A DNA stretch of 12,409 nt. Origin: Candidatus Krumholzibacteriota bacterium. GTDB lineage: Bacteria; Krumholzibacteriota; Krumholzibacteriia; LZORAL124-64-63. The DNA lies in assembly GCA_039714075.1 (NCBI GenBank), contig JBDLKA010000097.1, positions 1 to 12,409 of the forward strand. Reading direction: 5' to 3'. The position numbers and the translations under genes were made by a program. Position 1 is the stretch's first letter; every line of letters starts with the position of its first letter. Shown one piece after another: positions 789 to 5,587 of this stretch. The notes under the pieces were generated by a model that ran no database searches, was not told where the DNA came from, and saw nothing but the letters and a program-made list of their open reading frames with translations.

Positions 789-3299
789 TCATTCCGACGC
801 GAGATCCGATTCCTTTTGGATTTCCGCGACCCGCCGGTCCAGCGAATCCGCCACCGCGTCCTTGCCCAACTCCCTCAGCACCTCGGAATAATCGGGCAGA
901 ATCTCCGCCAGATCCGGATGCCGCGTCCCGTTCGCCTTCTCCTGTATGGCCACGGCCCTCTCGAAAAGGGGCTCGGCCTCTTCGGGATGCCCCCGTTTAT
1001 GGGCCAACAGGGCCATGTCGCGCAGGGTCCAGGCATAGTCGGGATGTTCCTCCCCGAACGCGCCCCTTCTTATCTCCAGAGCACGCGCATACAGGGCTTC
1101 CGCTTCATCGTAATGTCCCCGCGACCTTTCCAGGTTGCCCATGTTGTTCAGCGTCTGACCGACATCGGGATGCTCCGGGCCCAGCACCTTTTCCCGGATC
1201 TCCAGAGCCCGGCGGAACAGGGGATCGGCCTCATCAAGTTGCTCCTGCTCCTGGTGGCAAAGGGCCAGGTTGTTCAACGCCTGGGCCAGGCGGGGATGAT
1301 CCGGCCCCAGAACCCTCTGGTAAATCTCGGCGGCCTCCCGGTAGATCGGTTCGGCATCGGCGAACCGGTCCTGTTGGTGATAGAGCAGGGCGAGATTGTT
1401 CTTCCCCTTCGCCACGTCGGAATGGTTCGTACCGTACGCCTTTTCCCACAGACCCAGGGCCTGCTTGTACAAACGCTCGGCTTCCCCGTAGTTGCCCCGG
1501 TTCCAGTTGAGGATCGCCAGGCTGTTATAGCTGCGGGCGACCTCCGGATCGTCGGGACCCAACGCGACCATCCGAATGGCCAGGGCCCTGTTGTAGAGAG
1601 GTTCGGCCAGATCGTACTTGCCCTTCCTCCGGTAGACGCTGGCCAGTTCGTTGATGCTCAGCGCCAGCTTCAGGTTGTCCGCCTGATCCCCGTGCCGGTC
1701 CATCACCGCCAGGGCTTCGGTCAGCATCGTCTCGGCGTCGTCGTACCGTCCCTTGTCGATATAGAGATCCCCCAGATCGGCGAGCATGCCCGCGGAAACG
1801 ACATCATCCTCGCCGCTGGCGCTGCGCCGTAGTTCGAGGGCCGATTCCAGCTGTGGCGCGGCCTCCTCGTACAACCCGAGGTTCTGATAGACCTTGCCGA
1901 TGGTATTCATCAGCCGGGACTGGGTCATGGGCTCGCCGGCCAACTCGTCGGCGACCCGCAGCGATCCCTGGTCCAGGATTTCCCGCGCGGTGATGGTATT
2001 GCCCTTGGCCTGATCCGGGTCGGACACCTCGAAGATATCGACCAGGAAATCCGAGACCTTCCGCGCCGTTTCCGCCTCCTGCAAGGCGTGCTTTTCGGCC
2101 CTGATCGCCCGCACCAGCCCGGTGGTCGTCCCGGCGATTCCCAGCAGGATGGCCGCCAGACCGATGGATGCGGCCACCACTCCGGACCTGTGCCGGCGAA
2201 TGAACTTCTTGACCTTATAGGCCCCGCTCGGTGGCCCCGCACTGACCGGTTCGAAGTTGAGATGCCGCTTGATGTCCTGGCTGAACCCCTTGACCGTTTC
2301 GTAGCGCCGGGTCCGATCCTTTTCCAGAGCCTTCATGGTGATCCAATCCAGATCACCGCGAAGTTTCTTGCCCAGGGCCGCCGGTTCGATCTTCCGGTCG
2401 CCCGCCACCTTGACCAGGGTCTCCCGGGAAGCGATCAGGGTCTTGGCCCGCGTGCTCGGTTTTGGCGCTTCGTCCTCACGGATGATCCGCAGGACCTCGT
2501 AGAACCCCTTTTCCTTCAACTCCTCGGAGGGGAACGGCAATTGTCCAACCAGAAGTTCGTAAAGCACGACGCCCAGGGCGTAGACATCCGTCCGGGTATC
2601 GATCCCCATGGCCGTCATGTCCGTCTGTTCCGGACTCATGTATTCGGGGGTGCCGACAAGCTGGCCCGCGCTGGTGGTCATCGTGTTGTCGAACATGGAG
2701 GTATCCATGGCCTTGGCCACGCCGAAATCGATGATCTTGGGCACATGATGCCCGTCGATCTGTCCGACCAGGACGTTGGATGGCTTGAGGTCGCGATGGA
2801 TGATGGCCTTCTGGTGGGCGTGCTGGACCCCTTCGCAGACCAGGATGAACAGCTCCAGACGCTCACGGAGCGAAAGTTTGTGCTCGTCGCAGTATTTGTT
2901 GATGGGAATGCCCTCGACGTATTCCATCACGAAGTAGGGGCGGCCGGCCTCGGTGGCGCCGGCGTCGAACACCTTGGCGATGGCCGGATGATCCATCATG
3001 GCCAGGGCCTGGCGTTCGGACGCGAAGCGGGCGACGAATTCCTTCGTATCCATGCCCCGCTTGACCATCTTCAGGGCGACGCGCCGCTTGATGGGTTCTA
3101 GCTGCTCCGCCTCGTAGACCAATCCCATGCCGCCTTCGCCGATCTCCTTGACCAGACGATAGGGGCCGATCTGCTCGGCACCCGGCGACCCCTCGGAGGT
3201 GTCCTGGTCCCCGGCCGGCTGGGTTTCGGCCTGGCCGAAGCCGATCGTCCGCAGCGGATCTTCCTCGGGATTGATGTCGAAGGTCTTGTCGTCGGACAT
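789..3299 (-). CDS. Hanks-type Ser/Thr protein kinase with one TM helix and about 9 C-terminal 42-aa TPR repeats
   Basis: All core kinase motifs are present: IGEGGMGLVY, VALK, HRDLKPSN, DFG, GTPEYMSPE, DVYALG. TM segment VVAASIGLAAILLGIAG. Kinesin-light-chain-type repeats (LNNLA...EAEPL..RALEIREKVLGPEHP). GGAG RBS upstream of ATG3299. Confidence 0.95.
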   Translation of the reverse strand: MSDDKTFDINPEEDPLRTIGFGQAETQPAGDQDTSEGSPGAEQIGPYRLVKEIGEGGMGLVYEAEQLEPIKRRVALKMVKRGMDTKEFVARFASERQALAMMDHPAIAKVFDAGATEAGRPYFVMEYVEGIPINKYCDEHKLSLRERLELFILVCEGVQHAHQKAIIHRDLKPSNVLVGQIDGHHVPKIIDFGVAKAMDTSMFDNTMTTSAGQLVGTPEYMSPEQTDMTAMGIDTRTDVYALGVVLYELLVGQLPFPSEELKEKGFYEVLRIIREDEAPKPSTRAKTLIASRETLVKVAGDRKIEPAALGKKLRGDLDWITMKALEKDRTRRYETVKGFSQDIKRHLNFEPVSAGPPSGAYKVKKFIRRHRSGVVAASIGLAAILLGIAGTTTGLVRAIRAEKHALQEAETARKVSDFLVDIFEVSDPDQAKGNTITAREILDQGSLRVADELAGEPMTQSRLMNTIGKVYQNLGLYEEAAPQLESALELRRSASGEDDVVSAGMLADLGDLYIDKGRYDDAETMLTEALAVMDRHGDQADNLKLALSINELASVYRRKGKYDLAEPLYNRALAIRMVALGPDDPEVARSYNSLAILNWNRGNYGEAERLYKQALGLWEKAYGTNHSDVAKGKNNLALLYHQQDRFADAEPIYREAAEIYQRVLGPDHPRLAQALNNLALCHQEQEQLDEADPLFRRALEIREKVLGPEHPDVGQTLNNMGNLERSRGHYDEAEALYARALEIRRGAFGEEHPDYAWTLRDMALLAHKRGHPEEAEPLFERAVAIQEKANGTRHPDLAEILPDYSEVLRELGKDAVADSLDRRVAEIQKESDLASE

Positions 3300-3434: not shown

Positions 3435-3467
3435 ATAAAACAGCCGGCGGACCTATCCCGCCGGCTG
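3435..3467 (-). terminator. Rho-independent terminator of the blaI-M56 operon
   Basis: Perfect 10-bp stem CAGCCGGCGG (3441-3450)/CCGCCGGCTG (3458-3467) with a 7-nt loop, followed by TTTTAT on the minus strand, 16 nt after the M56 stop codon. Confidence 0.8.
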
Positions 3468-3483
3468 ATTGATCATTGCCGGG

Positions 3484-5121
3484 CTAAAGCCCCGGATCCT
3501 GGATCGCGATCTTGTTCGCGCCGCCTTTCCTGAGTGCCTGCAGGACCTGCACGAACGCCCCGTAGTGCGTGTCCTTGTCCGTGTGGAGCGTCACGACCAG
3601 TTTGGGTTCCTTGGCCATTTTCCTGGCGATCACTTTGGGCAGATCCGCGCCGTCCACCTGCCGGTCGTTCACCGTCAGTACACCCGCGCCGTCTACTTTC
3701 ACCGGCAGTATCAGCTCCTTCGGCATCTTCTCCAGCTTTTTGCGGGCCTTTTCCGGCGGCAGCACCATGGGCACCGCCTCGCCCAGTTCACCCGTGTAGA
3801 TGACCTTCAACAAACCCATTTCCTTGAGCTGGGCCTGCATGGCCTGCACCTTGCCCATGGTCACGCCGCCGTCACTGTCGATCTGTATGACGACCTTGCC
3901 GCCCTTGGTCTGCATGGCCTTCTTGACGGCATCGCTGAATTGATCCTTGGCGACCGGTTCCCCGTTGACGGTCAGGCCCTTCGCCGTCACCCCGACGTGG
4001 ACCGAGGGCGGCGGAGGCGGCGGGGCGTCCGCGGGAACAGGCTCGCCGGCCTTCACGACTTTTTCGGGCTGGGCGGGTGGCGCCTTGGCAACGGGTTGGG
4101 CAACGGGAGCCGGCTTCCTGGGCGGGGGCGGCGGCGTATCGCCATACACCAGCGACAGGGGCACGATCGCCAGCAACAGCGCCGCCACCACCAGGGTCAA
4201 CCTCATCTTCGATACGGGATTCATGATTCCCTCCTTCACCTGATAGGTCACGCGTTTCATCAGTTCACAGCGGCGGCGCATCAGCGTCGAAGCCGATTCG
4301 GCCATGGGCCGGGGTTCGAGCACGGTCTCGGCGAGATCCACCAGAAACCGCGAGTAGGCCAGTCGCAGGCGCGGATCGTCACCCACCGACATGTCGTCGC
4401 ACGCCATTTCACGCCACACCCGCAACCGGCCGATCAGCAGATAAACCAGGGGATGGAAAAAGAAGACCGCCTGCACGATCACCTCGATCGGCTGCACGAG
4501 ATTGTCCCGGCGCCGGATATGGGCCAGTTCGTGCCTGAGAACGGCGGCCCGATCGTCCCGGGACCACCGGTTCCAGGCTGCGGGCACCATGATGCGGCGA
4601 TGGAACCATCCCATGGTCAGGGGGACCGCGATCCGCTTGTTGCGGCGGATGTCCAACCGCAGGTCGCGCATCTGCACCGGAATTTCCTCGGGATCAACCG
4701 GCGTGGACCGGCGCAATTCGACGTACAACTGGACCGACTGGAGCAGTGACCAGCCAAGGCGGGCGGCCACGATACTGGCCCAGGCCAGCATAAGGACGGC
4801 GGCCAGGCCCAGCCCGCCGGTCAGGCCGTTCACGATTTCACCGTTGGGAACCGTACCTGCGGCGAAGGGGAACAACAGGGGCGCCACGGGTTCGGCCAGC
4901 GTTTCCGACGCACCGGAACCGAACCAGCCGGTGGACACGAAGGGCGGCACCGCCAGTTTGACCACGCCCACCGTGGCCACGGCCGCCAGGACCCGCGCCG
5001 ATCCCCGCCGCACCAGATAAAGAGCCGCCAGGACCAGCAGCAGGAAAAGGGAATTCTGGATCACCGCGGACAGGAACCAGGTCCCCCAGGCAACACCCCA
5101 TTCGTTCAGCGTGGAGATCAT
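3484..5121 (-). CDS. BlaR1/MecR1-like M56 family metallopeptidase signal transducer with Pro-rich linker and two C-terminal ExbD/TolR-like domains
   Basis: N-terminal TM helices, zinc motif HELAH (AVLRHELAHIRRRD), FFFHPLV, REMACDD, LMKRV, then a TM helix and poly-Pro linker. Two ExbD-like repeats follow (LTVNGEPV...VVIQIDSDGGVTMGKV...LKEMGLLKV; LTVNDRQV...VVTLHTDKDTHYGAFVQVLQALRKGGANKI). ATGA overlap with blaI. Confidence 0.9.
   Translation of the reverse strand: MISTLNEWGVAWGTWFLSAVIQNSLFLLLVLAALYLVRRGSARVLAAVATVGVVKLAVPPFVSTGWFGSGASETLAEPVAPLLFPFAAGTVPNGEIVNGLTGGLGLAAVLMLAWASIVAARLGWSLLQSVQLYVELRRSTPVDPEEIPVQMRDLRLDIRRNKRIAVPLTMGWFHRRIMVPAAWNRWSRDDRAAVLRHELAHIRRRDNLVQPIEVIVQAVFFFHPLVYLLIGRLRVWREMACDDMSVGDDPRLRLAYSRFLVDLAETVLEPRPMAESASTLMRRRCELMKRVTYQVKEGIMNPVSKMRLTLVVAALLLAIVPLSLVYGDTPPPPPRKPAPVAQPVAKAPPAQPEKVVKAGEPVPADAPPPPPPSVHVGVTAKGLTVNGEPVAKDQFSDAVKKAMQTKGGKVVIQIDSDGGVTMGKVQAMQAQLKEMGLLKVIYTGELGEAVPMVLPPEKARKKLEKMPKELILPVKVDGAGVLTVNDRQVDGADLPKVIARKMAKEPKLVVTLHTDKDTHYGAFVQVLQALRKGGANKIAIQDPGL
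4222..4236 (-). promoter_or_regulatory. Candidate internal in-frame translation start within the M56 gene
   Basis: Minus strand AAGGAGG-GAATC-ATG (ATG at 4224, Met300), followed by the signal-peptide-like MNPVSKMRLTLVVAALLLAIVPLSLVYG. Confidence 0.5.
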
Positions 5122-5540: not shown

Positions 5541-5580
5541 TCTACTATATTTCTAGTAACTCTACGTAAAACACAGTACG
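5541..5580. promoter_or_regulatory. Tandem BlaI-type operator (2 x TAC-N10-GTA, 20-bp period)
   Basis: TACTA-tatttc-TAGTA palindrome (5543-5558) and TACgtaaaacacaGTA (5563-5578), both preceded by TC, overlap the -10/spacer/+1 region. BlaI-family repressors bind TAC...GTA dyads. Confidence 0.65.
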
Positions 5581-5587
5581 AAGTCAA
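5559..5587 (-). promoter_or_regulatory. sigma70-type promoter of the blaI-M56 operon
   Basis: TTGACT (5587-5582), 17 nt spacer, TAGAGT (5564-5559) on the minus strand. Confidence 0.7.

Follow-up and report, generated by a model that had tools for sequence, protein, structure and literature searches.

The DNA analysed here, called the window, comprises positions 1 to 12,409 of contig JBDLKA010000097.1 of an uncultured marine Candidatus Krumholzibacteriota bacterium (assembly GCA_039714075.1). On its reverse strand it carries a two-gene operon in which a gene for a BlaI/MecI/CopY-type repressor is followed by a gene for a BlaR1-like M56 metalloprotease with an ExbD-type outer part. Inside the second gene, the Shine-Dalgarno (SD) sequence AAGGAGG stands ahead of an in-frame ATG. 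Comparison with homologous genes leads us to propose that this is probably a functional internal translation start, giving rise to a protein of 246 amino acids (aa) in which a short basic tail and a single membrane helix are joined through a proline-rich linker to a pair of ExbD-fold domains.

A probable start region inside the protease gene of a repressor-protease operon

The features of the operon and of the internal site are collected in Table 1. The stop codon of the blaI-like gene and the start codon of the M56 gene share an ATGA overlap, and the blaI-like gene has an AGGAGG of its own 5 nucleotides (nt) ahead of its ATG. Read as the reverse complement, the junction inside the M56 gene is GTG AAG GAG GGA ATC ATG AAT CCC, in frame with the open reading frame (ORF) of 545 aa, and in the encoded protein it separates the last cytoplasmic helix from the last membrane helix. 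M300, the residue encoded by the internal ATG, falls in an AlphaFold2 model within a non-helical stretch (298-304) between helices 277-297 and 305-325. The initial annotation of this DNA had described the AAGGAGG-N5-ATG arrangement, its reading frame, the ATGA overlap, the 246-aa product and two ExbD stretches, and all the coordinates that it gave proved correct.

Table 1. Position of the operon, its domains and the proposed internal start region in the window
Feature	Position	Strand	Basis and remarks
Candidate promoter TTGACT-17-TAGAGT	5559..5587	-	Upstream of the blaI-like gene; consensus scan, 9/12 matches, pattern match only
Inverted repeat TACTAGAAATATAGTA	5543..5558	-	Perfect; immediately downstream of the -10-like hexamer in the blaI promoter; found by script
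blaI/mecI/copY-type repressor gene, 132 aa	5118..5516	-	Pfam Penicillinase_R, E 5.5e-28, 98.1 bits against a cut-off of 22.6
Full-length M56-ExbD gene, 545 aa	3484..5121	-	M56 metalloprotease part (BlaR1-like), then the last membrane helix, the Pro-rich linker and a pair of ExbD-fold domains
HEXXH zinc-binding motif, H197 E198 L A H201	4519..4533	-	Read from sequence
Last cytoplasmic helix, residues 277-297, ASTLMRRRCELMKRVTYQVKE	4231..4293	-	Model helix; low-confidence loop 270-282 before it
Internal Shine-Dalgarno AAGGAGG, codons K296 E297 G298	4230..4236	-	Read as reverse complement
Internal in-frame start ATG, M300	4222..4224	-	5 nt after AAGGAGG; spacer GAATC at 4229-4225
Predicted short isoform, 246 aa, MNPVSKMRLTLVVAALLLAIVPLSLVYGDTPPPPP...	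3484..4224 (stop included)	-	Translation from the internal ATG; production inferred from comparison
Last membrane helix, about 308-326	4144..4200	-	Model helix 305-325; N-terminal anchor of the predicted short form
Candidate signal-peptidase site VYG/D (G327/D328)	4138..4143	-	-3/-1 rule; analogy to SpsB cleavage of BlaR1
Pro-rich linker, residues 328-372	4006..4140	-	Sequence; predicted local distance difference test (pLDDT) score below 50 over 322-369
ExbD/TolR-fold domain 1, residues 373-453	3763..4005	-	Pfam ExbD, NCBIfam ExbD_1, model secondary structure
ExbD/TolR-fold domain 2, residues 457-540	3502..3753	-	Best Pfam ExbD stretch; Foldseek 8PEK, 5BY4, 8VGC, 8P9R
Intrinsic-terminator-like hairpin	3441..3467	-	11 pairs, 9 of them G-C, then TTTT; ends the two-gene operon

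Is this the way in which the host starts translation? Its genome has 62% GC and is assembled in 260 contigs. Ahead of the starts of long ORFs, GGAG peaks at position -11 with a frequency of 0.046 per position against a background of about 0.004, and this roughly ten-fold enrichment 11 nt before ORF starts indicates that the host uses SD-led initiation. Energies of the duplex with the anti-SD, computed against a generic motif, are -12.2 kcal/mol for the internal site, -11.3 kcal/mol for the primary start of the M56 gene (AAGGGGGG) and -10.8 kcal/mol for the blaI start, and the value of the internal site exceeds the 1% tail (-9.5 kcal/mol) of 1,855 internal ATGs of the genome. The primary SD had been described as weaker than the internal one, which the two energies show to be overstated for the window gene; family-wide, the primary site is the less conserved of the two, GGAG being found there in 19 of 50 genes and any of three SD tetramers in 32 of 50. 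Among 15,943 in-frame internal ATGs in 2,399 crude host ORFs with a length of 200 aa or more, AAGGAGG at a spacing of 4-9 nt precedes 4 and AGGAGG 16. Taken by itself, therefore, the internal site is rare and not unique and could be an accident; it is the conservation in homologues that lifts it above chance.

Conservation of the internal site at the nucleotide level

A protein search gave 80 relatives, many of them with the M56 plus ExbD architecture, down to about 35% identity. In a 31-sequence alignment, position 300 is M in 25 sequences, V in 5 and L in 1, and E297 is present in 26. The DNA of homologous genes was taken from a metagenome scan (79 loci), a one-genome-per-species scan (79 loci) and 61 related genomes, of which 6 matched, the host's own included. 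All scan patterns (REMACDD, HExxH and QAxxFFHP) lie in the protease domain, so that the loci were not selected by their junction. Stop-to-stop frames were scored with the 31-sequence profile and 153 non-identical ORFs covering the junction were kept. Of these, 63 scored above 280 bits, and once 3 had been dropped for being at least 80% identical to another, 60 representatives with 36-74% GC remained. They come from Gemmatimonadales, Latescibacterota, Krumholzibacteriia, KSB1, Zhuqueibacterota, Neomarinimicrobiota, Fidelibacterota and unclassified metagenome-assembled genomes, and the fused frame is open in every one of them. The outer module was assigned for 55 complete short regions, the scan leaving out the window's own gene and 4 genes cut by contig ends: 20 are ExbD-type and 35 TonB_C-type, the latter often with CarboxypepD_reg.

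In 57 of the 60 homologues GGAG lies 4-10 nt ahead of an in-frame start codon at the junction, the distance being exactly 6 nt in 46. The junction codon is ATG in 58 genes and GTG in 2; both cases of valine use GTG. Within the same genes this motif precedes only 27 of 1,531 other in-frame ATG/GTG codons and occurs at 2.2% of all codon positions. A null model in which the six upstream amino acids are fixed and codons are drawn by each gene's own usage expects 12.5 genes with the motif against the 57 observed (Poisson-binomial P 3.9e-45). The excess is also seen in genes below 50% GC, where the motif is found in 26 of 28 against 2.4 expected. At fourfold-degenerate sites the 60 genes have a median identity of 0.30, which is near random, that is, saturated; in the subset in which every pairwise fourfold identity is below 0.45, 26 of 27 genes carry the motif against 5.3 expected (P 7e-23).

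The choice of single codons follows the same pattern. Glu at position -3 is encoded by GAG in 47 of 49 genes (17.7 expected), and the codons of the invariant catalytic residues Glu198 and Glu238 are GAA in 65-67% of the same genes. Where position -4 holds Lys, the codon is AAG in 26 of 28 genes (12.6 expected). More generally, the amino acid at -4 varies (K, E, M, Q, R, L, S, T or G), whereas the third base of its codon is G in 57 of 60 genes, and column 296 has the highest third-position bias among the 338 columns that are not Met or Trp. Within 15 nt the preference reverses: Lys at +1 is AAA in 29 of 32 genes against 20.7 expected, and the position-wise consensus becomes aaGGAGg-N5-ATG-AAA. 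A one-codon displacement of the Met, seen in five genes, leaves it within SD range (spacings 5-9). Finally, in 95% of the 60 genes a 61-nt window at the junction folds more weakly than windows elsewhere in the gene (mean z +1.3, Wilcoxon 2e-11). Together, these codon-level comparisons show that purifying selection acts on the nucleotides of the internal site in a large M56 clade whose genes have ExbD- or TonB_C-type outer domains.

We read the junction as most likely a real initiation region because it unites a consensus SD at the spacing used by the host, an ATG or GTG, an A-rich second codon, weak structure and a domain boundary. The presence of SD and Met in homologues had been named by the initial annotation as a check to be made, and its outcome strongly supports an internal start: both are kept in the 57 of 60 genes described above and in 20 of 28 further ones. 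These last are non-identical ORFs taken from genomes in the same phylum as one TonB_C-type locus, much more divergent genes (150-250 bits) among them; GGAG plus ATG is present in 20, AGGA plus ATG in 2, and 6 have no qualifying site. In two of those 6 there is a partial or displaced match: L224 has GGAG-N8-ATG three codons downstream, and L177 a weak partial match.

Several observations speak against an internal start or limit the force of the comparison. GGAG is missing in 3 of the 60 homologues, and four of the 28 further genes (L209-L212) lack the junction Met. Outside the high-scoring set, only 8 of 90 lower-scoring M56 ORFs have GGAG and a start near the junction; these 90 are mostly of soil Acidobacteriota and Verrucomicrobiota types, and most show an unrelated ILDxxRNR at the junction. 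The one classical Bacillus plasmid BlaR1 examined has neither Met nor SD there. Among proteins of 134-431 residues, no close free-standing homologue of the short form was found: the 246-aa query gave 5 matches, apparently truncated gene calls of fused genes, and a TonB_C-type short-form query gave 7 (E up to 1e-10), the best of which carry M56 or sit on very short contigs. Moreover, the SD-ATG spacing is partly dictated by the ungapped protein alignment and is to that extent not independent; the junction encodes a charged juxtamembrane segment, naturally A/G-rich, which contributes to its weak folding; and the P values presume independent lineages, an assumption that synonymous saturation supports without proving.

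Some individual loci are of interest in their own right. L209-L212 are natural controls for a gene with no short form, and GGAG is kept in L211 and L212 and gone in the other two. A soil-type M56 clade (L033, L020, L016, L024, L043 and others) has a conserved FEGRMLAILD that reads GAGG-N5-ATG, 8-9 codons before the junction. Tandem paralogous M56 genes occur at L093 (3001-4566 and 4505-5980) and at L011 (920-2506 and 3001-4569), each copy with a GGAG-ATG of its own.

Could the conserved letters serve something other than initiation? Conservation of GGAG at the nucleotide level would fit equally well an SD-like element that pauses elongating ribosomes before the last membrane helix, which would let the protease module fold or swap within its dimer, or let the chain insert into the membrane, the Met being kept for protein reasons. 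The element stands 8-10 codons ahead of the membrane helix, and two of the four Met-less genes, L211 and L212, keep it. What a pause leaves unexplained is the start codon itself: the ATG or GTG in 60 of 60 genes, the GTG in both valine cases, the Met that shifts along with the SD, the AAA at +1 and the weak folding at the ATG. SD-induced pausing has, in addition, been questioned as an artefact of ribosome profiling, and we regard this explanation as unlikely. The same applies, with somewhat less hope still, to some other role of the RNA, such as a target for a small RNA, for a regulatory protein or for an RNase, that would control stability or translation of the 3′ half with no separate protein being made; nothing specific speaks for such a role. 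Synonymous constraint tells us that the RNA or DNA sequence matters and not why it does; nevertheless, the conserved letters are those of the SD consensus aaGGAGg at the start spacing of the host, followed by a start codon, and around them no conserved flanking structure was seen, the junction being the least folded part of the genes.

A purely protein-level origin, in which a juxtamembrane K-E-G-x-M motif meets the codon bias of a GC-rich genome, is very hard to maintain. E297 (26/31) and M300 (25/31) are indeed conserved, the genome has 62% GC, and in the other M56 clade FEGRM also yields GAGG-N5-ATG; however, fixed amino acids predict 12.5 of 60 genes and not 57, outside the junction the window gene chooses GAG for just 29% of its Glu codons, AAG GAG persists in genes with no more than 36-42% GC, and residue 296 is variable in spite of its conserved third base. 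The scar of a recent fusion, raised by the initial annotation, is rejected: the complete TonB/ExbD-type topology of the short form makes a fusion origin plausible, but as a neutral, un-eroded ribosome-binding site of a formerly separate TonB/ExbD-like gene the motif would have decayed, whereas GGAG is kept in 95% of genes with fourfold sites saturated (median identity 0.30) and the fused frame is open in all 60, no split forms being found among proteins of 134-431 residues. A fusion origin with later retention for function is compatible with an internal start.

The sensor-protease, its predicted short form and their surroundings

What would the two products look like? The N-terminal half of the full-length protein matches Pfam Peptidase_M56 (PF05569) over residues 107-292 with 90.3 bits against a cut-off of 31, and H197, E198, H201 and E238 are invariant in all 31 aligned homologues. 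Pfam ExbD (PF02472) is found with 58.5 bits (cut-off 25.4) in two stretches of the C-terminal part, the best at 450-541, and the NCBIfam ExbD_1 alignment spans 359-444. The AlphaFold2 model, built on 31 homologues (mean pLDDT 73.7), has a membrane-embedded protease part, a low-confidence loop (270-282), a cytoplasmic helix (277-297), a coil (298-304) and a membrane helix (305-325), and, on the outer side, a disordered Pro-rich stretch followed by alpha/beta domains at 373-453 and 457-540. Foldseek matches its first half to Staphylococcus aureus BlaR1 (8EXQ, E 4e-6; chain 8EXP also matches) and its C-terminal domains to the ExbD periplasmic dimer 8PEK, to TolR 5BY4, and to 8VGC and 8P9R (ExbD with TonB or D-box peptide). 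On the combined evidence of the M56 model, the HEXXH with its downstream Glu and the paired repressor gene, the protein is assigned to the M56 BlaR1-like family. It is, by the same kind of evidence, no beta-lactam sensor in the strict sense: the outer part is ExbD-type in place of a penicillin-binding domain like a class D beta-lactamase, and the NCBIfam BlaR1/MecR1 models stay far below their cut-offs (blaR1_generic 61.7 against 400, sensor_BlaR1 16.7 against 1200). The equivalog cut-offs for ExbD/TolR are likewise far from reached.

According to the available text of a study of S. aureus BlaR1, Arg294 of helix alpha9 completes the active site of the partner in a domain-swapped dimer, autocleavage takes place at S283/F284 in the loop before alpha9, and SpsB sheds the sensor at G331/Q332, after the last membrane helix (PMC9834060). 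Helix 277-297 of the window protein, in which R282 is nearly invariant among the 31 aligned sequences, may by analogy be the counterpart of alpha9 as the bearer of the active-site arginine (Arg294 in PMC9834060). Since the internal Met lies downstream, the predicted short form differs from an autocleavage product in containing no alpha9 and nothing of the protease.

The predicted short form consists of a 7-residue basic tail, one membrane helix, the Pro-rich linker and two ExbD-fold domains, with no protease and no alpha9-like helix. In 59 homologues the corresponding N-terminus has a basic tail (median 8 residues, net charge +3), and the median length of the uncharged run behind it is 21 residues. 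One of the 5 matches to the 246-aa query, the public gene call P0084 (258 aa, on a 2,056-nt contig), begins exactly at the internal Met (MNPVSKTRL...), either because the contig end cuts the upstream frame or because the gene caller favoured this start. Within the last membrane helix lies a P321-L322-S323 motif (4153-4161, reverse strand), with S323 in 31 of 31 and P321 in 29 of 31 sequences, and TonB_C-type relatives carry a Pro-Leu-Ser motif too (LPLSW). That a polar residue in such a helix never varies hints at a contact of functional importance.

Would the short form remain in the membrane? The initial annotation had proposed an exported, free sensor domain. The h-region of a Sec signal peptide comprises about 7-15 residues, and the median uncharged run of 21 has the length of a membrane helix; on the other hand, V-x-G before D328 obeys the -3/-1 rule in 25 of 31 ExbD-type relatives. 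A cleaved, free periplasmic form is a possibility, both by its sequence and by analogy with the shedding of BlaR1.

Regarding expression of the operon, the inverted repeat TACTAGAAATATAGTA is a candidate operator of the BlaI-like repressor. The pattern TACTA-N5-8-TAGTA has a single occurrence in the 4.06-Mb assembly (92% complete), at the blaI promoter, and TACTA-N6-TAGTA, searched for as a mark of other repressor targets, is absent elsewhere in the assembly, a weak negative given that the operator pattern is a guess. Because the operator-like pattern is unique in the assembly, the repressor may control its own operon only, which is probably self-repressed. A consensus scan found no sigma-70-like site that could act as an internal promoter within the coding part of the M56 gene.

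Other genes of the window encode a Ser/Thr kinase with TPR repeats, a protein with immunoglobulin-like domains and glutamine synthetase; ExbB/TolQ is not among the window's own genes. The kinase, of 836 aa with many TPR repeats, lies at 789-3299 on the reverse strand, directly downstream past the terminator. Regulation by the Stk1 kinase is mentioned in the available text of the BlaR1 study (PMC9834060). At 33 homologous loci, the TPR-kinase neighbour is absent among the flanking ORFs scanned, and the 60 nearest of 202 flanking ORFs include no conserved neighbour family, no TonB-dependent receptor and no ExbB, their families being unrelated to each other. Opposite the M56 gene, a 426-aa antisense open frame (3469-4749, forward strand) is most likely a GC-rich shadow frame.

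Possible roles and comparison with known systems

If the internal start is used, ribosomes would bind the internal AAGGAGG on the blaI-M56 mRNA and the 246-aa protein would be made alongside the 545-aa sensor-protease. The short form would then be either anchored in the membrane or released by signal peptidase at VYG/D. Most likely, it would tune the switch, be it by competing with the full-length sensor for a periplasmic partner or ligand or through mixed dimers of the short and the full-length form, in which one protease half is missing. It may also be the induced output itself; an induced effector and a ligand-titrating decoy had been put forward as candidate roles by the initial annotation. 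Since self-repression of the operon by the BlaI-like protein is probable, induction would be expected to raise the amount of the short form.

A more far-reaching and rather doubtful idea is that the M56-TonB_C and M56-ExbD genes of several FCB-type candidate phyla are two-in-one genes, with the full-length protein as sensor and the TonB/ExbD-like protein from the internal start as the regulated output of one self-repressed two-gene operon. It would fit the lack of a conserved neighbour in 33 loci, the candidate operator found only at the operon's own promoter, and the better conservation of the internal SD (57/60) than of the primary one (19/50). If true, the module would sense the state of the envelope or of the Ton system and respond by making more of a dedicated component of the Ton system, a separate target gene not being needed.

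How does this arrangement compare with known systems? The closest are BlaI-BlaR1 and MecI-MecR1 of S. aureus and Bacillus licheniformis, in which a repressor gene likewise overlaps an M56 gene whose product combines HEXXH with a final membrane helix and a sensor outside the cytoplasm. The likeness extends to the fold of BlaR1 (cryo-EM chains 8EXQ, 8EXP), and C-terminal fragments are known to arise there (PMC9834060). However, the sensor there binds penicillin and is replaced here by two ExbD-fold domains, and the fragments there come from proteolysis, whereas the short form here is predicted to be the direct product of an internal start and to have no alpha9.

A precedent for the internal start is Escherichia coli ArcB: an in-frame GUG preceded by an SD-like sequence marks one of its domain boundaries, is shared by different species and is reported to give a free C-terminal domain, ArcB-C (bioRxiv 10.1101/520783). 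The existence of this phosphotransfer domain, which is soluble and cytoplasmic, was confirmed by western blot and by initiation-arrest profiling (bioRxiv 10.1101/520783). In both cases an internal SD and start lie at a domain boundary of a membrane sensor, and in-frame internal starts are also known, from the same part of the literature, in infB, clpB and mrcB. Unlike ArcB-C, the product described here is predicted to be membrane-anchored or periplasmic, belongs to a protease-type sensor, extends across several candidate phyla and is known from sequence alone.

As for the domains that are combined, TonB1 (BT0813) and TonB10 (BT3898) of Bacteroides thetaiotaomicron are M56-TonB_C fusions, called functionally uncharacterised in a study whose available text does not mention an internal start (PMC10350073). 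They share with the window protein an M56 N-terminal module and a Ton-system periplasmic domain, and differ from it in that its domains are ExbD-type. The TonB_C-type short forms of the homologous genes resemble the CarboxypepD_reg plus TonB_C layout of TonB7 and TonB11, as far as that layout is given there (PMC10350073).

With regard to ExbD and TolR themselves, the short form shares their cytoplasmic tail, single membrane helix and periplasmic alpha/beta fold (8PEK, 5BY4, 8P9R, 8VGC). In ExbD and TolR, a conserved acidic residue in the membrane helix provides the proton path. The short form, in contrast, carries its ExbD-fold domains as a tandem pair, its membrane helix is free of acidic residues (0/31; residues 308-326 contain neither D nor E in any of the 31 ExbD-type homologues), ExbB/TolQ is not encoded next to it, and its NCBIfam scores are far below the cut-offs.

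In the literature, judged mostly by titles and abstracts, we found no description of an internal start in M56-TonB/ExbD or BlaR1-like genes. In-frame internal starts are known, and M56-TonB fusions are known from sequence and uncharacterised; as far as the accessible parts of these sources go, no paper was found that links the two.

Switches of the BlaI/M56 kind with TonB/ExbD-type sensors are common in environmental and gut bacteria. Each such gene probably encodes a second protein that is missing from annotation pipelines, and models of the switch, knock-outs and tagging must reckon with this second product. Analysis of synonymous sites alone exposes the predicted hidden product across phyla, and may offer an entry point to an uncharacterised family of envelope signalling.

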